IMG/VR virus record: IMGVR_UViG_3300026488_000017 | Coordinates: 40,396-104,395 of that record | Strand: one strand, 5' to 3' | DNA: 64,000 bases | Source: a virus | Taxonomy: Duplodnaviria > Heunggongvirae > Uroviricota > Caudoviricetes | Shown: piece after piece, positions 13,633 to 40,825 of the stretch | Numbering within the stretch: position 1 is the stretch's first letter | Layout: every line of letters starts with the position of its first letter | Translations under genes and position numbers: made by a program | The notes under the pieces: generated by a model | The model's input: the letters and a program-made list of their open reading frames with translations, nothing else | Told to the model about the DNA's origin: nothing | Database searches by the model: none

Positions 13633-14244
13633 ATGGATTTTGATTCTGAAACTCTTCAGTACTACATAATGAAAGGTAAAGTAATGGAACTAAAGGCAGA
13701 AGAGAAAAAAGGTACGCTTAAGAAATTAGTGAATGTGGATTTTGATAATGGTAAGTCACCACTTAATACAGCCATTTACAAAAAAACATCTACTATCGTG
13801 ACTATATTAATCGATAATGGTGCTGATGTAAATTACATAGATGGTAATGGTGGTCTCCCATTAGTGAATTCTGCCAACACAAACACTTTCATTATAGCTC
13901 CTTTACTCAAAGCTGGTGCTGAAGTAAACAAAGAGAGTACTTATGGTTCAACTGCTTTCACAAAAGTATTAGGTGATAGAGATAGAAAAGGTGAAGGTCT
14001 TGCTGTAGCACTTATATCTGATAAACATTTTGATATTACTAAAGAAGAATTTAAACCTGATATGCTTCTACAGCAATCGATTAAAAATAAATGGGATAGA
14101 GTAACGGCACTCATTCTCAAAACGGGATTTGATTTCGATTACGAGGACCTCAGAAATGTAGGTGATGGTACAAAAAAGATTATAGATAAACATCTAGGTC
14201 TAAAAAAATTAGGTAAGTACGCAGACTTACTAGGAGACATATAA
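13633..14244 (+). CDS. ankyrin-repeat protein with KKLGKYADLLGDI C-terminus
   Basis: ankyrin repeats (SPLNTAIY...NGADVN...GNGGLPLV...AGAEVN); conserved tail. Confidence 0.6.
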   Translation: MDFDSETLQYYIMKGKVMELKAEEKKGTLKKLVNVDFDNGKSPLNTAIYKKTSTIVTILIDNGADVNYIDGNGGLPLVNSANTNTFIIAPLLKAGAEVNKESTYGSTAFTKVLGDRDRKGEGLAVALISDKHFDITKEEFKPDMLLQQSIKNKWDRVTALILKTGFDFDYEDLRNVGDGTKKIIDKHLGLKKLGKYADLLGDI

Positions 14245-14723
14245 TGACTGTAAAACAATTTGAAGAAGAATTAGAAATGTATTCGGTAGACTTTGCTAAA
14301 GATGGAAGAACATTTTTAATGCAGTATGCAGAACTAGGTAATAATAAAATAGTTGATTACTTAATAAAGAAGAAAGCCAAATTAAATAAACAAGATGATA
14401 ATGGTATAACTGCTTTATATACTGCTGCCGTTAGGGATAGAAAATACATAGTAAATGCACTCATCAAAGCTGGTGCTGATGTAGATGTTCAAGATACTGA
14501 AGGAGATACGGCTCTTCATCGTGTAATGTACAATAGAGGTTCTAAGAAAATCGTAGAAATTCTTATACTAGCTGGTGCTGATTTAAGTATCAAAAATGAA
14601 GATGGTCATACAGCAGAAGATTTAATGATTGGTGAATACAAGAAAGTATTTTTATCATCAGTTAAAAAAGTGAAAGGTATGAAAAAATTAGGTAAGTACG
14701 CTGACTTGCTAGGAGATATATAA
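14244..14723 (+). CDS. ankyrin-repeat protein with KKLGKYADLLGDI C-terminus
   Basis: ankyrin repeats (NGITALYTAA, EGDTALHRV); conserved tail; ATG overlaps the upstream stop (ATAATG). Confidence 0.6.
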   Translation: MTVKQFEEELEMYSVDFAKDGRTFLMQYAELGNNKIVDYLIKKKAKLNKQDDNGITALYTAAVRDRKYIVNALIKAGADVDVQDTEGDTALHRVMYNRGSKKIVEILILAGADLSIKNEDGHTAEDLMIGEYKKVFLSSVKKVKGMKKLGKYADLLGDI

Positions 14724-15019
14724 TGAGTAGAGTTAGAATAACAGCTGTCATAGATGGTACATTCTATTACACTAGGTCGTATGAGGATAATGAATCACTA
14801 AAAGCTAGTGTAGATAGTATAGCAAATAGCGAAGTGAAGACACAGCTATTACGCTCAGATGCCAAAGAGTTATCGTATGAAAAATTTCTGAATGATTACA
14901 AAGATGGTAAGAATATTGTTTATTTTTGGATGGATGGTAAATGGATTAAAGATACAACGAAGAATATTATTAAAAATATTGCTCGTAAAAAAATAGGTAA
15001 ATACGCAGACCTATTATAG
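14723..15019 (+). CDS. hypothetical protein with KKIGKYADLL C-terminus (no ankyrin)
   Basis: shares only the C-terminal peptide with the ankyrin family. Confidence 0.45.
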   Translation: MSRVRITAVIDGTFYYTRSYEDNESLKASVDSIANSEVKTQLLRSDAKELSYEKFLNDYKDGKNIVYFWMDGKWIKDTTKNIIKNIARKKIGKYADLL

Positions 15020-15362: not shown

Positions 15363-15908
15363 TTATTTTACTAATTCAACATCACAAGTAACTTCATCTT
15401 GGTAGAACCAGTTCGTGTAGCACTTAGTGCTTATATTCAGGTAACCATTCTTTTCATAGAATAAACCATATTCGAAATACCCTTCTTTATTATCTCTGTT
15501 ATTATAGCTTACAATAAGCTCAGAAGAATTTCTATCAACGATGCTATAATTACCTCTCACAAACATTAATCCACTTTTTTGAACTACATTCGTTTCTGAA
15601 GTACCTTGGAACTGCGCTACTACTGAAAACCAAACGATAATAAACATTATTATTGCACTTACATAAATCTTGAATGTGCTATCCCACAATATGTCTATAT
15701 CTATAAAGAATATAGATACAGCATAAAAAACAAAAACGCCAATAAATAATCCGTATGAATCAGGGTTAATGAACACCAATATAGGGAATAACGGTATAAA
15801 CAGTACAGCCAAAACTTTCGATAATTTTTCTGTGTTTAATTCTCTTTTAGTCATTACAGTCCTTCTACTTTTAGATATCCACTTGGAGTCACTTTTGAAT
15901 CTGACCAA
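15363..15908 (-). CDS. membrane protein
   Basis: three predicted TM helices (LAVLFIPLFPILVFI, LFIGVFVFYAVSIFFI, IIMFIIVWFSVVA). Confidence 0.4.
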   Translation of the reverse strand: MVRFKSDSKWISKSRRTVMTKRELNTEKLSKVLAVLFIPLFPILVFINPDSYGLFIGVFVFYAVSIFFIDIDILWDSTFKIYVSAIIMFIIVWFSVVAQFQGTSETNVVQKSGLMFVRGNYSIVDRNSSELIVSYNNRDNKEGYFEYGLFYEKNGYLNISTKCYTNWFYQDEVTCDVELVK

Positions 15909-16345
15909 CTATTACTATATATTTCAATCGCCGTAATGTTTTTATCTCTTAGGTACATTGATTTATATTTGTAATATGTGCTTTCATCTAATTTACGGAA
16001 TAAGCCTATTGAAGTGTCTAAATCTACAATTATCTGCTTATTATCTACAAATAATAGGTTTTGATATACTAGTTTTTCTGTATTAGAAGTTTCATCAAAC
16101 ACGATAGATAAGTATATACCAGCTACTATTAGACCGATAAGCGTATATAATACTGGACCAACTGTATCATCTGTTACCTGAGTCAAAAACCAAGTAAATG
16201 TCCAAATACCTACAAGCAATGCTATAGATATTAACCCAAAACTCACGAAATCAAAATACATCATTACGAATGGTATTGGTAATGCCACTAACCAAGTCAC
16301 AAATATCTTGATTTTATATGTGTTAAATACTCTTTTCGTTTCCAT
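15854..16345 (-). CDS. membrane protein
   Basis: three TM helices at the N-terminus; overlaps the downstream ORF, so either start may be shorter than listed. Confidence 0.4.
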   Translation of the reverse strand: METKRVFNTYKIKIFVTWLVALPIPFVMMYFDFVSFGLISIALLVGIWTFTWFLTQVTDDTVGPVLYTLIGLIVAGIYLSIVFDETSNTEKLVYQNLLFVDNKQIIVDLDTSIGLFRKLDESTYYKYKSMYLRDKNITAIEIYSNSWSDSKVTPSGYLKVEGL

Positions 16346-16679: not shown

Positions 16680-17489
16680 CTAGAATTCGTACTGTTTTAC
16701 TCTAGCTAGTTCATTTTCTTTCGGGTATCCAAGTGCATTACATAACATTGTCGTACTGTACACTTCTTTTTCTAATGTAAAGTGTTGATGGCCAAATACC
16801 CAAAATTTAGCAGGTGTATCATCAACCATTTGTTCACCATCAAAATTATAGAAACCAGTACCTTCATCTTGGACAAATTCTTCTGGTGTGAAAGATGCGT
16901 GAGGCATAGGGTTGATATGAGAAACGATAATATCACAACCCTTATGGATATTCTGGAGTTTTGGTCGTTCGACCATTAGAACATCGTAGAAATCTGTATA
17001 ACCTTTGATTAAAACGCTGTCATTACTGTAACGCTTCCATAATGTCAAAGGGTTACAGAATGCATTTACTTTGTTACAGTACGAACCATCATACCATCCC
17101 ATAGCTCCACCAATCTTAATACCTTTGTACTCAACGATATCGCCATCTAGCATATGAATTTTGTCATTATCCTTAAACATTTCTTTGAGCTCTATTAAAC
17201 GAGCATCACTATTTCCGTATTTCTTTTCTTGATTCATATTGATTAAATACATATCGTGATTACCAGTAACGAAAAATAATTCTTTATAGAAATATTTAAC
17301 AAGAAATTCAAAGAATGCTTTTGTTTGGCTGTTGTAGTGAGATAAATCCCCAGCTACGATAAGAATCTCACCGTGCTTATGGCCTTCATCAAACATTTTA
17401 TTCTTACAGAATGTAAACATCTTATTTTCATTAGCGTTTGGTTTAATATGGAAATCAAGGTGTAAATCTGATATAATGTCGAATTTCAT
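16680..17489 (-). CDS. calcineurin-like metallophosphoesterase
   Basis: DLHLD ... GDLSH ... GNHD metallophosphatase motifs. Confidence 0.55.
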   Translation of the reverse strand: MKFDIISDLHLDFHIKPNANENKMFTFCKNKMFDEGHKHGEILIVAGDLSHYNSQTKAFFEFLVKYFYKELFFVTGNHDMYLINMNQEKKYGNSDARLIELKEMFKDNDKIHMLDGDIVEYKGIKIGGAMGWYDGSYCNKVNAFCNPLTLWKRYSNDSVLIKGYTDFYDVLMVERPKLQNIHKGCDIIVSHINPMPHASFTPEEFVQDEGTGFYNFDGEQMVDDTPAKFWVFGHQHFTLEKEVYSTTMLCNALGYPKENELARVKQYEF

Positions 17490-17504: not shown

Positions 17505-17545
17505 TTTACTGTATTATAACATAAAAATACTTAAAAGGAGATTAA
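17505..17545 (-). promoter_or_regulatory. promoter motif variant
   Basis: actgtattataacataaaaatacttaaaagg. Confidence 0.4.
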
Positions 17546-19272
17546 ATCTTCATCACAAGTTTTATGTAAATATGGCGCTCTTCAAAATCTGTACCTGAAC
17601 CCAAAACTCTCCCCGTGTCATTCGTGATATTCTTTACGCTAACTTTAATATAATCTTTTGAAAACTTGTACTTATAATAAACATCAAATTGATTGTAACC
17701 ATAGTTATGCTCTTTGATTCTAATATCTGCTTTGTCTGCTTCTGATAATGTCGTACTTTCTTTAGCAAATTTATGAGTTACTCCAGCACCGTAGTATTCT
17801 ATTCTCGTATCAGTTCTGAATGGTGTAATCTTTGAGATATAATCGATATTAGTTCTACCATAAACATACTCAGCAAAGAAATCTATGATGAATTTATTGC
17901 TCTCATAGACTAAGTTCGTGTTAGCACCATAAGTGTATCCATTCTCTGCATTTGTCACTTGAAACATATCTGAGCCATCAGGAGCAACAATATATGTCTT
18001 CTCTCTCGTTATCATATCTTCTAGTATATTATAGAACATAGTCCCTTTGTACTTGAAGTTTTGGTATCTAGCTGTGTAACCTATTTCAGTCTTAATGCTC
18101 GTTTCTTTCTTCAAATCGGGGTTAGGTATCTCATAAAGGCTATCAGAAACTGCTTCGTTTAGATTATAGATTGTCGGGTATTTGTAACCTTGTGCTATAC
18201 TTAAATATATTCCTTTGTACTCACCTTTAACACCTACACCTACATTCCAAAAGTTTTTATCTGCTATAGTTGCATAATCAGCAATTACACTAGCACTGTA
18301 TTTGAAATCTTTATAATTCTCAAAATAGTTTAGAGCTATACTGTTATCTATAACATCGTAGTTCTTCTTATCTTTGTTGTACTTCTGGTATTCTATATCT
18401 TCAAATTTGTGTTTCGTTGTCATAATCAGTTCATCACTAAAATAATACTCATTCCTAATCTGATAGATATTATTATTTGATTTATCGATTTTTTCTACAC
18501 CATTTCTAGGATTGTTTACATTCTCGTAGAAGTTCTGATAAGAAATCTTTAATATATAATCCTGATTAACCATAAAATCCTTAAAGAAACCTAAATAATA
18601 TTGTTTATCATAGATTCTCGGTTCTCCTTTAAGGAATTTATCAGTTCTATCTATTTCATCGCTTCGTGTGTAAATCAGTTTGTATCTGTTTTTCTCTAAA
18701 TAGATGCCCTTTTGATTATAATTTGTGTGTGCTTGTTCACCATCTGGAGTTACTACACTTCTTTTGTCCTCATATATAGCACCTAGTTTCAAATCTTCAT
18801 CTTGAAAAGAAGTAAAGACTTTTCCACCATTGATATAATTCTGAATTTGTATTGTGTTTGAGTTCGATTCTAAGAACCCTAAATGTCTATTGATTGAACC
18901 ACCAAAAGAATTATTACTAATATCATCAACACCTTTATTAAGTGAAATATCTTGTACGAATTCATTAGGGATATAAGAATAATATTGATTAGGCCCACTT
19001 CTAAAAAGTGAGTTCGTAAAATCCATTTCATCAACTGTAAGATTAATCTGGTCGCCTTGTAAACCTCTATATATGGGCTGTCTGAAACCTGGGGTGGTTT
19101 CTTGGATTTGAACAGCTCTCTCTGCGTGTTCGTTATTGTCTGTGTTTTCTAGTTGATTCACAAATAGAACTTCTCGTTGAAAGGGTGCTGAAGTAATAGT
19201 AATTTCTTTTAGTACGATTGTTTCTTGTGCAAATACAATCGTACTAGCTAGAATTAATGTTAATAGTTTCAT
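17542..19272 (-). CDS. TonB-dependent-receptor-like outer-membrane beta-barrel protein
   Basis: signal peptide MKLLTLILASTIVFAQE; plug-domain-like YRGLQGDQINLTVDEM and FGGSIN; Tyr/Asn-rich beta-strand-like C-terminal two-thirds. Confidence 0.45.
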   Translation of the reverse strand: MKLLTLILASTIVFAQETIVLKEITITSAPFQREVLFVNQLENTDNNEHAERAVQIQETTPGFRQPIYRGLQGDQINLTVDEMDFTNSLFRSGPNQYYSYIPNEFVQDISLNKGVDDISNNSFGGSINRHLGFLESNSNTIQIQNYINGGKVFTSFQDEDLKLGAIYEDKRSVVTPDGEQAHTNYNQKGIYLEKNRYKLIYTRSDEIDRTDKFLKGEPRIYDKQYYLGFFKDFMVNQDYILKISYQNFYENVNNPRNGVEKIDKSNNNIYQIRNEYYFSDELIMTTKHKFEDIEYQKYNKDKKNYDVIDNSIALNYFENYKDFKYSASVIADYATIADKNFWNVGVGVKGEYKGIYLSIAQGYKYPTIYNLNEAVSDSLYEIPNPDLKKETSIKTEIGYTARYQNFKYKGTMFYNILEDMITREKTYIVAPDGSDMFQVTNAENGYTYGANTNLVYESNKFIIDFFAEYVYGRTNIDYISKITPFRTDTRIEYYGAGVTHKFAKESTTLSEADKADIRIKEHNYGYNQFDVYYKYKFSKDYIKVSVKNITNDTGRVLGSGTDFEERHIYIKLVMKI

Positions 19273-19281
19273 AATGTTCCT

Positions 19282-20343
19282 TTATGTTTGTAGAATACCG
19301 AAAGATACTAATAATACAGCCCAAACGATTAAGACTGTGTAATATCTTACGATAGGTGTACCGAAATAAGTTTTGCTTATAACAACACATTTATGGACAG
19401 GTGATAACAAATAACCTGCAAAGTCAATAGCAAATAACACGACAAAATATGCTGGGCCAAATATTAATGTCAAGTACGATACTATCCCCGAAAATCTTGA
19501 AGATGAACCTAAACTAAACGATACAAAGAACGATAGCATAGCAACCATTATGAAAGAACTTTCTGCTGAGGCATAAGAGTGAAACCACTCTAGTACACCT
19601 GATTCTCTAATAAAATTACCCAAGATGATGCTTACAGCAACATAACCGAGTACCCAATAGTTCAGCGTCTTGTGGATTTGTTTCAGTAAATCAAGATTCA
19701 ATTCTGTCCCATAGAAATACATTTTTAACCCTATAACAGAAAGAAACAATACACCGAACACTATTGCTGGATTAAAGAAAAATATACCTATTAGACTCAT
19801 TATAAAGAACAATCCTGCTAGTTTATCAAATAGTGAAAATTTGATATTCTTTAGTTCTTCCTCTGAAAAATTGTACTTCAATACTGTATCTTTAGGTAGA
19901 ATAAAATAAATTGTTACTCCTATATATAGAAAAGTAATAATCAATAATGGATAAATTAATGTTATGATACTATAATATGTTAGACCAAGAACTGCCATTG
20001 GGATAATGATTGTCTTCTCTAATGGGTTCCATAAGTAGTAATGGTGAGAACTTAGATAATCTATAATACCTAAATTTTCTCTTACTTCTTTGTCGTTGTC
20101 TTTTGCTATGATATTATCTAAGACTCCTGCCGTTAAAGACACTCTTCCTGGAACTGGTAGCATACCCGCAAACAGACTGAAAACAAAAAGTGTTAATCTG
20201 GTATCTTTGAGTCTGTTATGTAGTTTGTAGAACAAGCCAGTAAAGAGTGGAGAATCATACAATAATCCTGCAATAGACATAATAAATGCCAAGAACAAGA
20301 TATAATGTAGATTAGATAATAGAGTTAAGAACTCTAGTTCCAC
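19282..20343 (-). CDS. polytopic integral membrane protein (about 9-10 TM)
   Basis: hydrophobic segments throughout; immediately upstream of the OMP-like gene. Confidence 0.45.
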   Translation of the reverse strand: MELEFLTLLSNLHYILFLAFIMSIAGLLYDSPLFTGLFYKLHNRLKDTRLTLFVFSLFAGMLPVPGRVSLTAGVLDNIIAKDNDKEVRENLGIIDYLSSHHYYLWNPLEKTIIIPMAVLGLTYYSIITLIYPLLIITFLYIGVTIYFILPKDTVLKYNFSEEELKNIKFSLFDKLAGLFFIMSLIGIFFFNPAIVFGVLFLSVIGLKMYFYGTELNLDLLKQIHKTLNYWVLGYVAVSIILGNFIRESGVLEWFHSYASAESSFIMVAMLSFFVSFSLGSSSRFSGIVSYLTLIFGPAYFVVLFAIDFAGYLLSPVHKCVVISKTYFGTPIVRYYTVLIVWAVLLVSFGILQT

Positions 20344-21008
20344 TATTTCTTCTTTATTAGTTCGTTAAGTTGTAAAGCTGGAATCAACCCATTATCTTGC
20401 GAAATCTGTTTGATGTATGCATTCTCTGATGCACTCAAATATAGATTAGAAGCAGTTGCTTGTGAAATTGCACTATCAACTATAAGTTTTTGTGTCGAAT
20501 CATCTAACATTAAAATAGCATCTAAGATACCTTTACCAATTCTACCACCAGTCATAATATCAATCTGAGCTTCTTTAATGAATTTATTAATCCAGTAAAG
20601 TTCTTCACCTTTTTCATCAGCAAGAATAGTCTTTGGGTCGCCTTGTTCTTTAAGTCTATCAAAGTTTGCTTCAAATACATTGATTTCATATTTGTAATTT
20701 GATAGAGTCTTTTTGAGTGTCTTTAGTTTTATCTTTTGTTTTTTGATTTCTACTAATTTCATCTTGAACGATATAGAACCATCTTCTAAGTCGCATAAAT
20801 CTTCATTTAGACCTTCGAACACAAGGTCTTCCATTTCTAAATCAAGTTCTAAATCTTCTAAGCCACCGTATCGTGTACCTAGTTCTAGTAAAACTTGTTT
20901 AAGCATTCTATAATTGGTCATCTTATCATTGATAACAAATTTATCAATTTGGTATTCTGACATCGTAGTACTTTGAGCTTCTATAAGCTCTTCTATTTCA
21001 TTTCTCAT
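20343..21008 (-). CDS. hypothetical protein
   Basis: ORF with 1-nt overlap to the downstream gene. Confidence 0.4.
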   Translation of the reverse strand: MRNEIEELIEAQSTTMSEYQIDKFVINDKMTNYRMLKQVLLELGTRYGGLEDLELDLEMEDLVFEGLNEDLCDLEDGSISFKMKLVEIKKQKIKLKTLKKTLSNYKYEINVFEANFDRLKEQGDPKTILADEKGEELYWINKFIKEAQIDIMTGGRIGKGILDAILMLDDSTQKLIVDSAISQATASNLYLSASENAYIKQISQDNGLIPALQLNELIKKK

Positions 21009-21017
21009 TATTTCCCT

Positions 21018-21713
21018 TTAGAGTAAGTTTAGTTCTTCTGTAATATTTATAAGTGCACTGTTAGAAGTACAAGAGTTTATTCTATCTTTGAAAGTATATT
21101 TCTCTGCTAGTGTTGTACCTATATTAGCTTTGTATTCATCACTATTCGCAATGACTTTCTCTGCTACTTCAAGAAGAGTTAAGTTTCTAGCTGTACTGAT
21201 GCTATTAAGAATTACATAATCTTCAGGTACTAAAGTTCCTGCTGTTGCAATAGAATTTGCTTCTTCAAGTTGTAAAGACCAAGTTGTGCTTTCTGCACCG
21301 TATGTTCTTGAAATATCTTCTATTTTAGTACTGAAAATTAATTCTAATTCTCTTAGTAATAGAAACTGCTTAGAAGCTAGTTGTTGTGCAAGTTCTAAAT
21401 CTGTTAAAATGATTTCTAGTTTCTCGAAATCTGCATTTGGTCTAAAATACTTATCGTATCGTTTGTTAGCACCATTTACAGAATTGAAAAATTGTAAACC
21501 TACTGCTATCTCATCTGTAATCTCGAACATATTGAAATCTGCCATAATCGAATCAGCATACCCAATATACCAATTAAGATTAACTGGAATTGAACTAGGT
21601 ATGATACTCTTATTGAATGAGTAAGGTAATTGACCTTTGTTGTTTGGTGTGTAGATAATCACCTTTTTGTTTTGAACTATGTCTGCTATACCTTCATCTA
21701 TTAATGCTATCAT
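21018..21713 (-). CDS. hypothetical protein
   Basis: ORF. Confidence 0.4.
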   Translation of the reverse strand: MIALIDEGIADIVQNKKVIIYTPNNKGQLPYSFNKSIIPSSIPVNLNWYIGYADSIMADFNMFEITDEIAVGLQFFNSVNGANKRYDKYFRPNADFEKLEIILTDLELAQQLASKQFLLLRELELIFSTKIEDISRTYGAESTTWSLQLEEANSIATAGTLVPEDYVILNSISTARNLTLLEVAEKVIANSDEYKANIGTTLAEKYTFKDRINSCTSNSALINITEELNLL

Positions 21714-21733: not shown

Positions 21734-22630
21734 TTATAGAACAACATAACTAACTGTACCTAATGTACTTGCCGTTATGCCGTTACCTGATTTATCTGCT
21801 AGTGGTGTTATACCCTCAAAGTCGTAGTATAATACTAATCCCGCAACTGCTGGTAGTTTACCTTCTTGTGCTGAAAGAACTTTTTTGACATCTTCTTTCG
21901 CTAAGAAACGATTGTAACATAGTATTGTATCGAATTTTCCATTAAGAAGTGATTGCCCGTTATTACCTCTTAACCCGAATCTTAATGGGTCTGATACTTG
22001 TAGTAATGATGATGGTATTACATTTACTGTGGTACTAGGTGTTTCTGCTGTACCACTAAAAGTCCCGTGAACAGCAGAATCGTATGCTAATCCACCATCT
22101 AAGTAGATATGTATCCTTGCGCCAGGACCATCATAACACATTGTTACTTTATGTCTTTCATTTGGTGGTACTTGTATACCTGTCCAAATCCAAGCCCAAG
22201 ATGATACACCAGTCCCAGCTGTAGCATACGATAACCACCCATCAGGTGATACTTGTATTTCGTATGAATTTTCTTTATTGAAGAAAATAGTAGGGACTAG
22301 ACTTGTTTGGTACACTACACCAAAAGATATTGTATAGCCTGTTGTGAACGATGTGTTGGCTGAAGGAGCAAATACTGTAGCATCACTACTACTAAGTAAT
22401 ATACCAGTAGTTTCGTTTAGTAAATCAACTTTTTCTATCAAGTCATCGATTGCATCAGTAGCAGAAGAAATTCTCGATAATACTTCAGCAATAGTATAGT
22501 ACCTATCTCCGTGAGTGTGGTTATTGTCTGTGTTGTTTACTACTGGAACATTATAGACTTTATCCCAATCTATTGTTCCATCAGCTCTTACTACTGCAAC
22601 ACCATTAATCTCGAATGTTTTAACTGTCAT
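21734..22630 (-). CDS. putative tail fibre/baseplate structural protein
   Basis: NNHTHGDRYYT motif, also present in the giant fibre (SHTHDGRYYT); Ser/Thr/Gly/Asn-rich beta-type composition. Confidence 0.45.
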   Translation of the reverse strand: MTVKTFEINGVAVVRADGTIDWDKVYNVPVVNNTDNNHTHGDRYYTIAEVLSRISSATDAIDDLIEKVDLLNETTGILLSSSDATVFAPSANTSFTTGYTISFGVVYQTSLVPTIFFNKENSYEIQVSPDGWLSYATAGTGVSSWAWIWTGIQVPPNERHKVTMCYDGPGARIHIYLDGGLAYDSAVHGTFSGTAETPSTTVNVIPSSLLQVSDPLRFGLRGNNGQSLLNGKFDTILCYNRFLAKEDVKKVLSAQEGKLPAVAGLVLYYDFEGITPLADKSGNGITASTLGTVSYVVL

Positions 22631-22639
22631 TTTTAACTC

Positions 22640-23638
22640 CTAGCTCTCTATGAAGCTTGATTGTGTAGTATCTGTCGAATTTGCTGTCATTACACTAAAA
22701 GTATCAGTACTAAAACCAAGTTTTGTCGTTGTAGTAGAATTACTACCAGAAACAAGAACACCAAAAATATCATTTGCTGTATTGTTTGAATTAACTTGTG
22801 TGGCACCTGAAATTTGAGATATAGAATCTGTTGTATAACTATGTTTAAAGTTATTTGAACCCAACCAATACCCTACTTTGCTATTTTTTTGTAACGCACT
22901 TACTTCACTATTTATATTAAATTCGACAACTTCTGATATTGTACTAGCTGAGTATGAGTATCTTTTTAACATATCAGCTAATGAATTCGTTTGTCCTTTA
23001 AGAAAACCATATGTGAATGAGCTTAATCCTATACCAAAGTTCCCCTTATGTGCTATATCAGGTTTAGTTATATAAGTATTAAGTAGAATATTTACTTCTG
23101 TTGCTTTTGTAGCACCATCAAAGATATAACCTTTCGATTGTACAGCAAAATCTATTAGTGTATTTTTTACAATAAAAGCAGAGTCTGAAACTGTTGTCGC
23201 TGTAAGAGTAAAGTGGTCAAATTTATTGATTTTCTTGGCATCATTCATAAAATAACCGAATCGTTGAAAACTCATACCAGAACCTTTAACAGTCGAAAAA
23301 CCTACAGAAGGAGTCAATAAACTAGAAACTTCAGTACCTATATTGTAATTTCTTAGTCTAGCATCATCATTTGAACCACCACCATTCATAATGATATTAG
23401 TTTTATACCCGAGAACTTCAATTCTACTCGATAAAACATCAATCTTATCTTTTTCTGCTTGAAATAAGAATGTTACTTCATCGGCAGGCATATAAAGAGT
23501 ATCGTGTATGTGTCCTGTCCCAGCAACTAATGATGATGGTATATTAATAAAATCTGTAAATTTCACTTTAGCTGTTGTGTTGTATATTGTTTTGTTACCT
23601 GAATCTAATTCTACTATTAGTGTGTTCGACTTTGCCAT
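22640..23638 (-). CDS. putative tail/baseplate structural protein
   Basis: compositional similarity to fibre proteins; in the structural gene train. Confidence 0.35.
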   Translation of the reverse strand: MAKSNTLIVELDSGNKTIYNTTAKVKFTDFINIPSSLVAGTGHIHDTLYMPADEVTFLFQAEKDKIDVLSSRIEVLGYKTNIIMNGGGSNDDARLRNYNIGTEVSSLLTPSVGFSTVKGSGMSFQRFGYFMNDAKKINKFDHFTLTATTVSDSAFIVKNTLIDFAVQSKGYIFDGATKATEVNILLNTYITKPDIAHKGNFGIGLSSFTYGFLKGQTNSLADMLKRYSYSASTISEVVEFNINSEVSALQKNSKVGYWLGSNNFKHSYTTDSISQISGATQVNSNNTANDIFGVLVSGSNSTTTTKLGFSTDTFSVMTANSTDTTQSSFIES

Positions 23639-23647
23639 ATCCTTCTC

Positions 23648-24715
23648 CTAAGACTCTGCCATACCAGCAGATGATTGTGGTAGTGCTAGTGAACCACCAA
23701 GTACATTACTTGCTGCCTCTGTTGCCCATACCATTTTTTGAACCTTTCCGTGTTGAGCACCATCGTACCCACCCATCATAAATCCTACTTTTTCTGAACC
23801 TAGTGTGTTTGACTCCGAGAAACCTTCACTAAAACATATAACATTTGATACTGTATTAGTAACCATATTGACACGCCAATTATTAGCTGTACCAGTACCA
23901 TCGATGATATAACCTTTATCTGCATCCTTAGAAAGACCTGAAGGATAATGTGTAATTGCTTGAGTCGTCCCAGCACTGGATGTATTTGTAAGATATGTGT
24001 ATTTTGTTGTTGCTTTTGTTGCAGCACCTTCTTTTACTACATAACCGAAATTTTCTGAAGAAAGACCTTGTCTTGTGCTGCTCTGTGATGCTGCTACTGG
24101 TAGAAGAGTCGTTGAGGCACTTACGATTGATACAGAACTCCAGTGATTCGCTGAATCACAAACATAAAGCTGTGATTGTGAGTAGATATTATATAAAGTA
24201 GCTCTAACATCGTGAGGCATCAAGTTACCTAAATATGTTTCTACTTCTGTAGCATAAACAATGGTATCTACTTCTCTACCAGTCGAACGGAAGTTCCCCG
24301 TAGCTCCATTTCTCGAAGTTCCAAAATAAAAACCTTTGAATTCAGAACTACCACCTGGGGAATATTGGCAAGTTACTGTCCCTATTTGCCCAACTTCTGT
24401 TCCTGTTTCTGTTACTGTATTGAATCTTTGTACTCGCTCTGCATACACAAAACTACTCTTATACCCACCATTAAGAAAACCTTTAGTTTTAAGAGGACGA
24501 ACTGTAAGTGCTTTTGATAGTGCAGCAACTGTATCCATTATCTCACCGAATTCGGCTTCAATAGTGTTCTTACTTGTGTAAATATCATCGTGATTGTGAT
24601 TCGATGGGTCTATCAGTGCTGATGGAATACCTGCGATGTGGTCGTAGTTTACTTTCCCGTTTGTACCTATGATAGTCTCTCCGGCTGTATTGGTTAAACT
24701 CTTAAAATCTGCCAT
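23648..24715 (-). CDS. putative tail fibre/baseplate structural protein
   Basis: N-terminal NHNHDDIY motif; Ser/Thr/Gly-rich. Confidence 0.4.
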   Translation of the reverse strand: MADFKSLTNTAGETIIGTNGKVNYDHIAGIPSALIDPSNHNHDDIYTSKNTIEAEFGEIMDTVAALSKALTVRPLKTKGFLNGGYKSSFVYAERVQRFNTVTETGTEVGQIGTVTCQYSPGGSSEFKGFYFGTSRNGATGNFRSTGREVDTIVYATEVETYLGNLMPHDVRATLYNIYSQSQLYVCDSANHWSSVSIVSASTTLLPVAASQSSTRQGLSSENFGYVVKEGAATKATTKYTYLTNTSSAGTTQAITHYPSGLSKDADKGYIIDGTGTANNWRVNMVTNTVSNVICFSEGFSESNTLGSEKVGFMMGGYDGAQHGKVQKMVWATEAASNVLGGSLALPQSSAGMAES

Positions 24716-24723
24716 TTTATCTC

Positions 24724-25335
24724 CTATTTCAGTATAAAGACACCTAATCCGTTCCAGTAATCATTTTTTGATTCTGATTCAGTAAATATCTCTTTTTTGT
24801 ACACAATTTTCTTGTTTAATGTATTTATAAAATAATCGATAGCAGTTTGTACGCTCTCAAAATTATAATCATCCAAGATTAATATAGCATTATTAAGTAT
24901 TTTTTCGTATAGGACTAGGAATTTAAAAATATCTTCTACCTCGTGTGAAGCATCATAGAAAATAACATCGAATTTTTGACTCCGTAGAGCACCATAAACC
25001 TCAGGACTAAAAATATCAGCGTTGATTATTTTTGTGTTAGTGATTTTGTATTTTTTGAGATTATTTTCTAGCGTTTGTGTCGTATCACCTATATCAATAT
25101 CTAGGACTGGTATCGTTTCAGTAAATATTAAGGAATCTATTGCCGTTACACTTTTAGCGGACAAGGCAATGGGAATCGTACTAGCACCTTTGAAATAACC
25201 TATTTCCAAAACATTTTTACCTTTAGAAACCTCGTGTAGAAAATATTGAGATTTTGGCGATGTCAATCCACATAGATTATATTCTGTGTATTTCTGTGAA
25301 TCGATTTTATCGAAAATTTCATCTAGGTATTTCAT
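24724..25335 (-). CDS. class I SAM-dependent O-methyltransferase (TylF/MycE-like, Methyltransf_24)
   Basis: VLEIGYFKGAST (SAM-binding motif I) and FDVIFYDASHE. Confidence 0.5.
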   Translation of the reverse strand: MKYLDEIFDKIDSQKYTEYNLCGLTSPKSQYFLHEVSKGKNVLEIGYFKGASTIPIALSAKSVTAIDSLIFTETIPVLDIDIGDTTQTLENNLKKYKITNTKIINADIFSPEVYGALRSQKFDVIFYDASHEVEDIFKFLVLYEKILNNAILILDDYNFESVQTAIDYFINTLNKKIVYKKEIFTESESKNDYWNGLGVFILK

Positions 25336-26348
25336 AGAATATCCTCACATTTTGTGCATTTCCAGCAGTCAAAATTACAATTTTTTGTCCAATCCACCCA
25401 TTCATCAAAAACCTCATCTGAAATATTATTCTTGCTTTTGATTTTGTAAAATTCATTCGTGCTTTGTAATGCTAAGATACCTAGCTCTGTTACCTTCTCT
25501 ATAATGAATAACGAGTTCAGGAAAACATTTTTAGACTCTCTCCCGTGAAGCTTGAAGACATCGATTCCATCTAAGCCTTCCATAAAAGATTCGGTAGGGA
25601 TGATGCTAGATTTTTTGAGACCGTATGATGGGTCTTCTTTCTCCCATTTGTAACACGAAACATTATACATTGAGCTCTTGAAAAAAACTTCTTTCTGTGT
25701 ATTGATATTATTATTCACATTGTAGGTGTAATGCTCTGATTGAATAGGGCAGTTACCAATACAGTTCTCGTTCCATAATATGCTCAAGCTTAGTTTTTTC
25801 TTAAGGATTTCTTGTGCTTTATCTCTTGCTTCGTATATCTCTTTGAGAGTATTTTGTGACCTCATAAGATTCCTATCTACATTGACATAATCAAAACCAG
25901 CTAAGAAAGCATCATACACTTCTCTAGGTTTGTCTAACGAGTGCAAAACAGTATTCTTAATATACAAATCAGGAAATTCTTTCTGAATCTTCCCAAAATA
26001 TAACCAAGAGGTAAAAGGAATAGTAACAGTTCTTATGCCAATATTATATAGATTTCTGAAATTGGCTATGAAAATATCAAGATTTTTTTCGGAAGGAGAG
26101 ATATGAATATTATTGAATACTGGAGATACTTTGATACCAGTTAATTGCTGTATTATTACGGCATTTGAAATATTTGTTGTAATATCTTCTTTTGTGAATA
26201 TAGTCCCCATAGCATCTTGGTTGAATGGTGCCATTCGTACTGTAAAATAAATATCGTTTATGTGATTTTTGTATTTAAGCAAGAAAGGAACTAAATGCTC
26301 GTGAATGTACTCCGGGGTTAAATCCGGGTATAGAGGTAATGAAAACAT
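25332..26348 (-). CDS. hypothetical Cys-rich protein
   Basis: CIGNC and C-terminal CNFDCWKCTKC clusters; no confident family. Confidence 0.35.
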   Translation of the reverse strand: MFSLPLYPDLTPEYIHEHLVPFLLKYKNHINDIYFTVRMAPFNQDAMGTIFTKEDITTNISNAVIIQQLTGIKVSPVFNNIHISPSEKNLDIFIANFRNLYNIGIRTVTIPFTSWLYFGKIQKEFPDLYIKNTVLHSLDKPREVYDAFLAGFDYVNVDRNLMRSQNTLKEIYEARDKAQEILKKKLSLSILWNENCIGNCPIQSEHYTYNVNNNINTQKEVFFKSSMYNVSCYKWEKEDPSYGLKKSSIIPTESFMEGLDGIDVFKLHGRESKNVFLNSLFIIEKVTELGILALQSTNEFYKIKSKNNISDEVFDEWVDWTKNCNFDCWKCTKCEDIL

Positions 26349-29716: not shown

Positions 29717-29765
29717 ATCTTATACCTCGTATTTTATAGGTATTTATACGGGAATAAAGAAGAGG

Positions 29766-39634: not shown

Positions 39635-40825
39635 ATGAAGAATATAACGCTATACAAAAAACAAATAATAATATTCTTCTTAGCTATTTCAATAATGATG
39701 GTTTCATTAACTGCTATGATTGTGGAAACTCGTTCACATTTACTACAAGCAAAAGCAAATGTATATATGTCGAGAGTAATCGAAGACCGTTCTCCGTTAG
39801 AAAACTCGTTTAGAATACTAAAAGATGGGTGCACCTGGTATGTGGATAATAACCTGAATATTACAGGCAAAAGAGACAACAATATGGTCCCTCTAATCCA
39901 GATTGGTGATGTAATCCTTGATACTGATTATGAAATTTTTGTAGAATATGACGGTTATCTGCTGGTTGATGATAATATAGGGAATGTGTTATTTAAGCTT
40001 CTATGGTATGGTGCATTATTCTCATTCATACTCATTGTTATTATGTTGCTACTACTAGATACTTCGGTATCCAAAGAAAGAGACCACACTCTCAAAATAT
40101 TATTAAGCAATGAAGCTTTGTCATCGAGTAAAACTACGATTATGATTACAGAAAATGTGCACCACGAACTCAACACACCAATGGAAGTAATAGAAAACAA
40201 GATTGCTAAAATCCAAGATTTCTTGCTACCGGTGCTTTTAAATGAAGATTTATTTGTTAAAGAATATGCTTTAGAAATCAACGATGACTTTGAATTGATT
40301 GCAGAATCAGCAGAATTAGTACATAATGTTCTTAATAGTATGAAAGAATATAAGCACCTTAGATATAGTAATGGCAATAAAACTCTGTATGACATCATCA
40401 ATGGTGCATTTAGTATATTAAATTATACTACTGGTAACTTCAACTATGAAGTAGATGTTAGATTGAAATTGTATAAGCTAGATGATTCTACATTCAGGAA
40501 TGCTACTCTAGTGAATATAATTTTAAATCACTTGAAGAACTCGCTATCTGCTAATAGCACAAAGATAATAGTGCTATTCGATAAAATAGAAAAGGGTATA
40601 TGTACTTTTAGAATCATTGATAATGGTAATGGGATAGCGAAGAAGAACATCGCAGAGATTTTTAAACCAAATTTCAGCACAAAAGATGTTCCAGGGGAGA
40701 TTTCAGGTAACGGGTTATTTCTCAATAAGACTATACTAACAGAACATAGTGGAGGCCTAAAACTAATCGACACATCAACTCTAGGTACTACATTCGGTAT
40801 TGGTGTTCCAGCAATTCTACGCTAG
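39635..40825 (+). CDS. membrane-bound sensor histidine kinase
   Basis: two TM helices flanking an extracytoplasmic loop of about 90 aa; H-box HHELNTPMEVIEN; N-box IILNHLKNSL; G1 DNGNGI; F IFKPNF; G2 GNGLFL. Confidence 0.7.
   Translation: MKNITLYKKQIIIFFLAISIMMVSLTAMIVETRSHLLQAKANVYMSRVIEDRSPLENSFRILKDGCTWYVDNNLNITGKRDNNMVPLIQIGDVILDTDYEIFVEYDGYLLVDDNIGNVLFKLLWYGALFSFILIVIMLLLLDTSVSKERDHTLKILLSNEALSSSKTTIMITENVHHELNTPMEVIENKIAKIQDFLLPVLLNEDLFVKEYALEINDDFELIAESAELVHNVLNSMKEYKHLRYSNGNKTLYDIINGAFSILNYTTGNFNYEVDVRLKLYKLDDSTFRNATLVNIILNHLKNSLSANSTKIIVLFDKIEKGICTFRIIDNGNGIAKKNIAEIFKPNFSTKDVPGEISGNGLFLNKTILTEHSGGLKLIDTSTLGTTFGIGVPAILR

Follow-up and report, generated by a model that had tools for sequence, protein, structure and literature searches.

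The 64,000-nucleotide stretch analyzed here (positions 40,396 to 104,395 of the IMG/VR record IMGVR_UViG_3300026488_000017; hereafter, the window) is a part of a 331,651-bp T4-like jumbo phage contig, representing an uncultivated giant phage, and carries on its minus strand a gene for a putative outer-membrane TonB-dependent transporter (TBDT), preceded by a gene for an inner-membrane protein of the DUF401 family. Both open reading frames (ORFs) lie exactly where the original prediction, made from the letters of this DNA alone, had placed them. The features of the TBDT gene are as follows:

17542–19272, minus strand: TBDT gene, 576 amino acids (aa), ATG start (ORF; Pfam PF00593, hhalign, and Foldseek)
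19278–19282, minus strand: AAGGA ribosome-binding site 5 nt upstream of the TBDT ATG; it overlaps the stop codon of DUF401 (sequence reading)
19228–19272, minus strand: signal peptide, residues 1–15 (MKLLTLILASTIVFA, predicted cut before Q16; inspection)
19189–19224, minus strand: TonB-box-like motif, residues 17–28 (ETIVLKEITITS; motif resemblance)
18868–19119, minus strand: plug core, residues 52–135 (hhalign against cellular TBDTs; PhuR plug alignment)
17545–18855, minus strand: beta-barrel, residues 140–576, approximately 22 strands (AlphaFold2 and Foldseek)

Judging from its sequence and predicted structure, the product of 17542–19272 is a complete TBDT of minimal size. The cleavable signal peptide that had been proposed for it was evident by inspection, i.e., the N-terminus MKLLTLILASTIVFA, followed by QE, combines a basic n-region, a 12-residue hydrophobic core, and a V-x-A cleavage motif, and hydrophobic N-termini are kept among the TBDT homologues. 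Near the mature N-terminus there is a family-wide motif L-x-x-I-x-[VI]-x-[SA] (LEPITVES, LPPIIVDA, and LEKISVTA). The canonical TonB box is ETxVVTA, and ETIVLKEITITS resembles it.

The Pfam profiles recovered one of the two expected domains. The barrel profile (TonB_dep_Rec_b-barrel, PF00593) matched with 36.2 bits (gathering score 27), whereas the Plug profile (PF07715), applied to the single sequence, reached 17.5 bits (E 0.006), under its cut-off of 23.9. A profile-profile comparison (hhalign) of 19 family members with 60 ordinary cellular TBDTs, one of which (L045) was checked and has clear Pfam Plug and barrel domains, resulted in an alignment with a probability of 100% and an E-value of 2e-55, spanning 524 columns and residues 52–576. 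It was revealed that the plug motifs read from the sequence beforehand are real, since YRGLQGDQINLTVDEMDF and FGGSIN fall on canonical boxes: YRGLQGDQINLTVDEMDF pairs with the IRGLTGxQTLLLIDGIRL boxes of cellular TBDTs, and ISLNKG...FGGSIN pairs with their IEVVRG...IGGTV. In the same alignment, TTPGF, YRGLQG, and LTVDE correspond to the PGV, IRG, and LIDG boxes, respectively, and FRSGPNQY is found verbatim in both profiles. Used against the PDB, an eight-member family profile had PhuR as its best match (E 7e-14, plug and barrel both), followed by ShuA/ChuA and HasR. Moreover, 84 columns, plug boxes included, are invariant among eight sequences down to 30% identity, which argues for selection on a transport function. 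The invariant Arg, Lys, and His residues are R91, H181, R209, K212, K364, K481, R518, R555, and R566.

The predicted Tyr/Asn-rich barrel was recovered as well. The barrel part contains 11.0% Tyr and 8.5% Asn (the protein has no Cys), and the AlphaFold2 model, built on an 8-sequence alignment (predicted local distance difference test score (pLDDT) 65.7, predicted template modeling score (pTM) 0.67), shows a well-defined barrel of 24 beta segments (residues 140–575), in blocks with pLDDT of about 80–88. The top Foldseek matches in the PDB were all TBDTs (BtuB, ChuA, OprC, PhuR, HasR, FrpB, and ZnuD; E about 1e-13), with TMq values of 0.54–0.61 to solved 22-strand transporters. The assignment of a phage-encoded protein resembling TonB-dependent receptors is, in this way, supported by the profiles, the profile-profile comparison, and the fold. 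With BtuB, ShuA, ChuA, and PhuR it shares the signal peptide, the TonB box, the plug of approximately 125 residues, and the 22-strand barrel, and its length is that of BtuB (approximately 560–600 residues). It differs from BtuB and the heme receptors in that the identity is only 11–14%, the heme-ligand His is missing, the gene is phage-encoded, and its close homologues adjoin phosphatase genes rather than cobalamin or heme genes.

The TBDT gene is placed between the tail-fiber module and other phage genes, and the G+C content is approximately 33% over the whole window. Typical phage genes of the window encode long tail-fiber proteins, a family-B DNA polymerase (phrog_262, E 6e-178), which is closest to the polymerases of Campylobacter T4-like phages (30% identity), and a DnaB-type helicase. 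Because an identical TBDT protein with the same neighbors was found in three independent assemblies (the 331,651-bp ENA contig ERZ27262635 k141_314747, a Logan contig, and JGI data), an assembly error or host contamination is unlikely, and with the same arrangement repeated in a 68%-identical relative both were rejected as explanations.

To place the protein within its family, sequence databases were searched at several scales. The word-indexed search of 5.8 billion proteins indicated eight close relatives, all of them metagenomic, with generic TBDTs next at E 1e-11. In the exhaustive profile search of 1.84 billion representatives (50% identity), approximately 20 full-length family representatives (552–595 aa, at least 245 bits) were distinguished, past which the scores fell to ordinary TBDTs of 660–790 aa; the total number of matches at E ≤ 1e-30 was 46. 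Among 50,697 records of reference phages, neither the TBDT (tblastn) nor the 4.5-kb region (blastn) had a match. In IMG/VR and JGI metagenomes, the homologues are located on at least six different types of phage contigs:

L004, L017, and L105: syntenic relative, 68% identity
L018 and L114: contig of 281–285 kb
L109 and L115: contigs of 110 kb and 34 kb
L005, L013, and L116: 53–135 kb, with ribosomal protein S21, PhoH, pyrophosphatase (PPase), and NT5C
L019–L024: approximately 96 kb
L022: divergent

As for cells, a search of 185,579 species (one genome each) gave close matches only in three contigs of Campylobacterota metagenome-assembled genomes, including Sulfuricurvum (29–33% identity, E 1e-63 to 1e-80; the next match had 3e-18), and further members, named by their sources Campylobacterota, Campylobacterales, and Sulfurimonas, came from a search started with the cellular sequences. 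Pfam misses most of the family members, and the sources label the cellular ones as ‘hypothetical protein’ or ‘outer membrane beta-barrel protein’. In a neighbor-joining tree, the phage and Campylobacterota proteins create one clade, apart from the TBDTs of Bacteroidota and Planctomycetota, within which the cellular sequences are one sub-clade among several phage sub-clades. The small Campylobacterota TBDTs of this clade (562–570 aa) show 29–36% identity with the phage protein over the full length, and their conserved motifs match (e.g., FRSGPNQY, HxNYNQK, and DIRI..HN.GY). As the tree, the family matches, and the affinity of the polymerase agree, we infer that the host belongs to Campylobacterota and that the gene passed from host to phage long ago, the age being suggested by the phage-to-cell identity of only about 30%; the phage ancestor would have acquired the gene from a host lineage of the Sulfurimonas or Sulfuricurvum type.

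The cellular homologues offered the main clue to the function. In six of the seven informative cellular loci (L025 was left out as too short to judge), the homologue lies directly beside genes of secreted phosphatases, namely PhoX, PhoD, a PF04185 phosphoesterase, a purple-acid-phosphatase-like enzyme, a glycerophosphodiester phosphodiesterase (GDPD), or a phytase, and it usually comes after a DUF3450-ExbB-ExbB-ExbD-TonB-TPR cluster. The gene orders in these six loci are:

L026: DUF3450, ExbB-like, ExbB, ExbD, TonB, TPR, small TBDT, secreted purple-acid-phosphatase-like metallophosphoesterase, GDPD, second TBDT, beta-propeller phytase
L027: TBDT, 909-aa PF04185 phosphoesterase, PhoD
L185 (236-kb Campylobacterales contig): TBDT, PF04185, and PhoD as in L027, with a TonB cluster and a TBDT-phytase pair nearby
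L113: TBDT, GDPD
L187 (Sulfurimonas): TonB cluster, TPR, PhoX, TBDT
L188: PF04185, TonB cluster, TPR, TBDT, PhoX, further TBDT, PhoD

In the next-closest cellular clade, a PF04185 phosphoesterase gene is located at most three genes away in 25 of 80 loci (immediately upstream in 23 of those 25), and genes of HD-domain, HAD, DUF5690, and FAD-oxidoreductase proteins recur nearby. Because the cellular homologues adjoin phosphatases, TonB-powered uptake across the outer membrane, linked to phosphorus scavenging, is the best-supported function of the family, as far as gene neighborhood can suggest it. A comparable proposal was made for Flavobacterium, in which low-phosphate-induced TBDTs adjoining periplasmic phosphatases or a phytase were proposed as importers of organic phosphorus (PMC8115612); the co-location of TBDT and phosphatase/phytase genes is the same, here in the cellular homologues of the phage gene. 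Among the candidate roles listed in the original prediction, altered host nutrient uptake is the one that this genomic context supports, and the nutrient appears to be phosphorus-linked.

Two gene arrangements noticed in these comparisons deserve a separate mention. A phosphate-scavenging island recurs in Campylobacterota (L026, L185, L187, and L188), composed of the DUF3450-ExbB-ExbB-ExbD-TonB-TPR cluster, two kinds of TBDT, and PhoX/PhoD/PF04185/GDPD/phytase genes. The phage copy stands apart from the small Campylobacterota TBDTs in having neither such an island nor its own TonB system. A related TBDT of Bacteroidota occurs together with a beta-propeller-PF04185 phosphoesterase of approximately 900 aa, its pair partner, and with the HD, HAD, DUF5690, and FAD-oxidoreductase genes, an arrangement that looks like one for the use of organophosphorus compounds or phosphonates.

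Considering the above, we propose, with a probability of about one half, that the phage TBDT gene is a host-derived auxiliary gene through which the phage increases the TonB-driven uptake of a phosphorus source by the infected cell. After infection, the protein would be exported by the Sec pathway and inserted by BAM into the outer membrane of the host, where it would draw energy from the host TonB-ExbB-ExbD complex through its TonB box. A phosphorus-linked substrate, most likely an organophosphate ester, would be imported to the periplasm, and the uptake would be completed by phosphatases of the host (PhoX, PhoD, and others) together with the host phosphate uptake system, so that more phosphorus would be available for replication of the 331-kb genome under phosphate scarcity. 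The DUF401 carrier may or may not move the same substrate across the inner membrane. The TBDT architecture, the phage location, the family membership, and the gene context of the cellular homologues are shown here, and from these we infer the substrate, the TonB dependence, the localization, when the gene is expressed, and what the phage gains from it.

Several observations weigh against this proposal. The substrate is deduced from the neighborhoods of homologues that are only 29–36% identical, and one of them, the Sulfurimonas locus L186, has no phosphatase gene nearby. In the phages, no phosphorus-related gene is consistently adjacent to the TBDT gene: there is a metallophosphoesterase gene in the window, radical-SAM genes come after the TBDT gene in L004, and in L005 the neighbor is the ribosomal S21 gene, with PPase, NT5C, and PhoH genes nearby. 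Homologues of PhoH, PPase, and NT5C were not found in the window, nor were homologues of TonB, ExbB, and ExbD. For the Campylobacter jejuni pho-box GTTTCN6GTTTC, no relevant site came up in the window, the region upstream of the gene included; the cellular loci gave none either, which makes the motif uninformative. Because the gene ends the tail-fiber module, it may be expressed late, with only a short period remaining for uptake. As PhoX, PhoD, and purple acid phosphatases depend on Fe(III), the linkage with phosphatases could reflect a supply of metal, and the closest solved relatives by sequence (PhuR, then ShuA and ChuA) are heme receptors. Regarding the protein itself, the plug is poorly defined in the AlphaFold2 model (pLDDT < 55), and the C-terminus (...KLVMKI) ends with Ile, where most homologues and most outer-membrane proteins have Phe or Tyr.

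The genes surrounding the TBDT gene were analyzed as its possible partners. Those which come up in the further considerations are:

19282–20343, minus strand: DUF401 inner-membrane protein gene, 353 aa, GTG start (Pfam PF04165, phrog_14035, AlphaFold2, and Foldseek)
20343–21713, minus strand: 221-aa gene (phrog_1409) and 231-aa gene of the DUF401 cassette (homologues by DUF401 in S-H25, RP12, L022, and L008)
24724–26348, minus strand: S-adenosylmethionine (SAM)-methyltransferase gene (203 aa) and Cys-rich 338-aa gene of the DUF401 cassette (phmmer, Methyltransf_24)
16680–17489, minus strand: metallophosphoesterase gene, 269 aa, directly downstream of the TBDT gene (Pfam Metallophos, E 8e-10; phrog_1649, E 4e-34)

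The upstream protein is polytopic, as originally predicted, and matches DUF401 (PF04165) with 53.3 bits (gathering score 24), as well as phrog_14035 (E 2.5e-66); against TIGR00529 it scored 67.7, where the cut-off is 378. Its AlphaFold2 model (pLDDT 86.8, pTM 0.85) had VcINDY as the best Foldseek match (TMq 0.67, E 8e-6), followed by TRAP SiaQM, human NaS1, the yeast phosphate carrier Pho90, ArsB, and YdaH, i.e., it superposes on DASS (VcINDY), TRAP DctM/SiaQM, Pho90, and ArsB structures with TMq of 0.60–0.67. Only the fold search gave such matches; a sequence search of the PDB with the DUF401 profile gave none. The protein is predicted from its model to be an elevator-type anion carrier of the ion-transporter superfamily. 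The Wzy-like or flippase role that had been left open for it is not supported: there was no Wzy_C, Polysacc_synt, or MOP match in Pfam and NCBIfam at E up to 1, and in Foldseek MATE-type folds appeared only at E > 0.3 with TM of about 0.15. The phage DUF401 proteins (approximately 340–350 aa) are shorter than the canonical DUF401 (a 393-position profile) and DASS proteins (approximately 445 aa). We know of no DUF401 protein with a known substrate, and a literature search for ‘DUF401’ returned incidental mentions only.

DUF401 is the last gene of a block ordered as follows: tail fiber, 338-aa Cys-rich protein, SAM-methyltransferase, fiber-like paralogues, 231-aa protein, 221-aa protein, and DUF401. 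The block is also present in the related phages L004, L009, and L011. Homologues of the 221-aa and 338-aa proteins accompany DUF401 in the Synechococcus phage S-H25, the Ralstonia jumbo phage RP12, the phage contig L022, and a 6.4-Mb bacterial genome (L008), while a homologue of the 231-aa protein accompanies it in L022 and L008. For the genes at 24724–26348, phmmer gave E-values of 1e-84 to 1e-86 to RP12 ORF139 and to a 527-aa protein of S-H25; in S-H25 and L022 the methyltransferase and the 338-aa protein are fused into one protein. The 338-aa protein has invariant Cys clusters (C196, C200, and C232; C324, C328, C331, and C334) and no match in Pfam or the PDB, also when a profile was used.

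The distance between the DUF401 and TBDT ORFs is 9 nt, and a scan for terminator-like sites on the minus strand between them found none; co-transcription of both genes is plausible from this layout. The phage lineages in which the TBDT gene comes directly after DUF401 are only three, namely the window, L004/L017, and the distant L022 (in which the genes overlap). DUF401 has no TBDT beside it in L009 and L011, and in most TBDT-bearing phages and all cellular loci DUF401 is not beside the TBDT gene. With this distribution, DUF401 does not qualify as a dedicated TBDT partner. What stands from the original prediction is that a polytopic protein is encoded immediately upstream; it belongs, though, to a separate cassette. 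A functional link between the two is possible, given the recurrence of the pair in L022. As for the metallophosphoesterase, it belongs to a common phage family (phrog_1649) and lacks a signal peptide, and its adjacency to the TBDT gene is absent in L004; any functional link with the TBDT is weak. The three adjacent genes could also be seen as one import line spanning the envelope, in which the TBDT would take an anionic organophosphate through the outer membrane and DUF401 would take it through the inner membrane, and the metallophosphoesterase (16680–17489) would free phosphate in the cytoplasm. We regard such an arrangement as unlikely; if it were true, the route through the host periplasmic phosphatases and Pst would be bypassed, and DUF401 would gain its first substrate class.

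Of the other explanations of the TBDT gene, import of a metal or a metal chelate (Fe(III), heme, or another cofactor) instead of a phosphorus compound is the least improbable, though not very likely. Such a transporter would feed the iron-dependent PhoX, PhoD, and purple acid phosphatase in cells, and iron-demanding enzymes in phages, e.g., the radical-SAM proteins of the related phages. PhoX and PhoD do have an Fe-Ca cofactor, the best sequence matches among solved structures are the heme receptors PhuR, ShuA/ChuA, and HasR, the sole NCBIfam match is the hemoglobin/transferrin/lactoferrin receptor family, and in the relatives L004 and L009 this position is immediately followed by three to six radical-SAM genes. 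However, scored against TIGR01786 the protein reaches 36.5 bits, where the cut-off is 323.75, and there is no His in YKYPTIYNLNEAVSDSLYEIPNPDL, which lies between the FRAP-like (YKYP) and NPNL-like (NPDL) motifs, at the site of the heme-receptor ligand; on both grounds membership in the heme-receptor subfamily was rejected. Furthermore, the neighbors that recur beside the cellular homologues include non-iron ones (GDPD, beta-propeller phytase, and PF04185), and siderophore, heme, or Fur-type genes were not seen beside any homologue (L026, L027, L185, L187, and L188).

Adjacency to the tail-fiber module could rather suggest remodeling of the cell surface, i.e., that the protein replaces or competes with the homologous receptor of the host (for TonB or BAM, or as a surface target) and blocks superinfection by phages using that receptor. 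TBDTs are common phage receptors, and prophage-encoded porins are known to swap receptors. Nevertheless, the TonB-box-like motif and all plug boxes are kept across the phage clade, which a passive decoy would not need, nothing indicates that any of these phages uses this receptor, and an additional receptor on the debris of lysed cells would trap progeny phages, so we consider this role quite improbable. About as improbable is that the TBDT constitutes the outer-membrane leg of a route for the substrate or product of the DUF401 cassette. The anion-carrier fold of DUF401 and the position of the TBDT gene directly after it in three divergent lineages (with the overlap in L022) would fit such a route, but the cassette is found without the TBDT in L009, L011, Synechococcus phages, the Ralstonia phage RP12, and the bacterial genome, and the TBDT without DUF401 in most phage lineages and all cellular loci. 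Finally, the variable position of the gene and its absence from the relatives L009 and L011 could point to a functionless passenger taken recently from the host. Intact reading frames and strongly conserved motifs in at least six types of phage genomes, with identities down to 25–30%, together with the phage-to-cell identity that marks the transfer as old, make this highly improbable.

Phage-encoded outer-membrane barrels are uncommon but not unknown. In the viral structure library BFVD, the only convincing TBDT match (E 1.4e-9) was the putative TonB-dependent receptor SusC of the marine megaphage Mar_Mega_1 (UniProt A0A8D9FQQ5), for which a role as an auxiliary gene of carbohydrate uptake was proposed (Michniewski et al. 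2021, PMC9723777). Both are TBDTs located on very large genomes of uncultivated phages and read as auxiliary uptake genes, but Mar_Mega_1 SusC (805 aa) shares only 12% identity with the protein analyzed here (TMq 0.46), it belongs to a different family and host group, and the substrate proposed there is a carbohydrate. Features of the SusC type were also looked for: a CarboxypepD_reg domain was not found with Pfam, there is no SusD neighbor, and the protein has 576 aa, compared with the barrel of approximately 1000 aa in that type. BFVD lists, in addition, phage proteins named OmpC, OmpW, autotransporter beta-domain, and ‘phosphate-selective porin O and P’.

The closest analogy in strategy is provided by pstS and phoA of cyanophages, as in each case a single phage component would plug into the phosphorus uptake chain of the host. 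PstS is a periplasmic binding protein, whereas the TBDT is predicted to reside in the outer membrane and to need TonB energy. The reading proposed here joins a known class of proteins and a known viral strategy (phosphorus acquisition) with a new cellular location and an uncharacterized family. The phosphorus genes known from phages concern two steps, the periplasmic one (pstS) and the enzymatic one (phoA); if the proposed function is true, phages would control nutrient uptake of the host at a new point as well, through an energized gate in the outer membrane. The presumed hosts of the phages with this gene are sulfur-oxidizing Campylobacterota, dominant at vents and redox interfaces. The analysis also flagged a previously unrecognized, mostly unannotated family of small TBDTs in the phosphatase islands of Campylobacterota, for which the phage copies constitute a compact, 576-aa model, and it indicated that DUF401 proteins, which resemble anion carriers in their predicted fold, ride in a widespread phage cassette.

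Scans of the window for promoters and terminators revealed nothing above chance, and promoter-like matches were no more common than in shuffled sequence. This includes the motif TATAAATA, which resembles the T4 late promoter and was not enriched in the window (12 found vs. 13.3 expected). Two of its copies on the minus strand are located upstream of genes of this region, one at 29741–29748, 25 nt upstream of the gene of the 1114-aa tail-fiber protein, and the other at 21044–21051, 36 nt upstream of the 221-aa gene of the DUF401 cassette.

The region beside the tail-fiber module differs in its gene content between the related phages, and it can be considered a variable island for this reason. 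In the relatives, three to six radical-SAM genes are placed directly after the position of DUF401 or the TBDT gene (9731–19613 in L004 and 8382–14253 in L009), and in the window phage the same position is occupied instead by the metallophosphoesterase gene, genes of two small membrane proteins, and ankyrin genes. The membrane proteins (181 and 163 aa; maximal Kyte-Doolittle mean over 19 residues of 2.4–2.5) are encoded by two overlapping ORFs downstream of the metallophosphoesterase gene (15363–16345, minus strand). Further on, three consecutive ORFs (13633–15019, plus strand), two of which encode ankyrin-repeat proteins, share the C-terminal peptide (K)KLGKYADLL(GDI), which may be a targeting or interaction tail. 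On the other side of the TBDT gene, within the DUF401 block (21734–24715, minus strand), three paralogous short fiber-like proteins (298, 332, and 355 aa) are encoded, one with a Laminin_G_3 domain, and their common N-terminal motif HxH..D..Y takes the forms NHTHGDRYY, GHIHDTLY, and NHNHDDIY.

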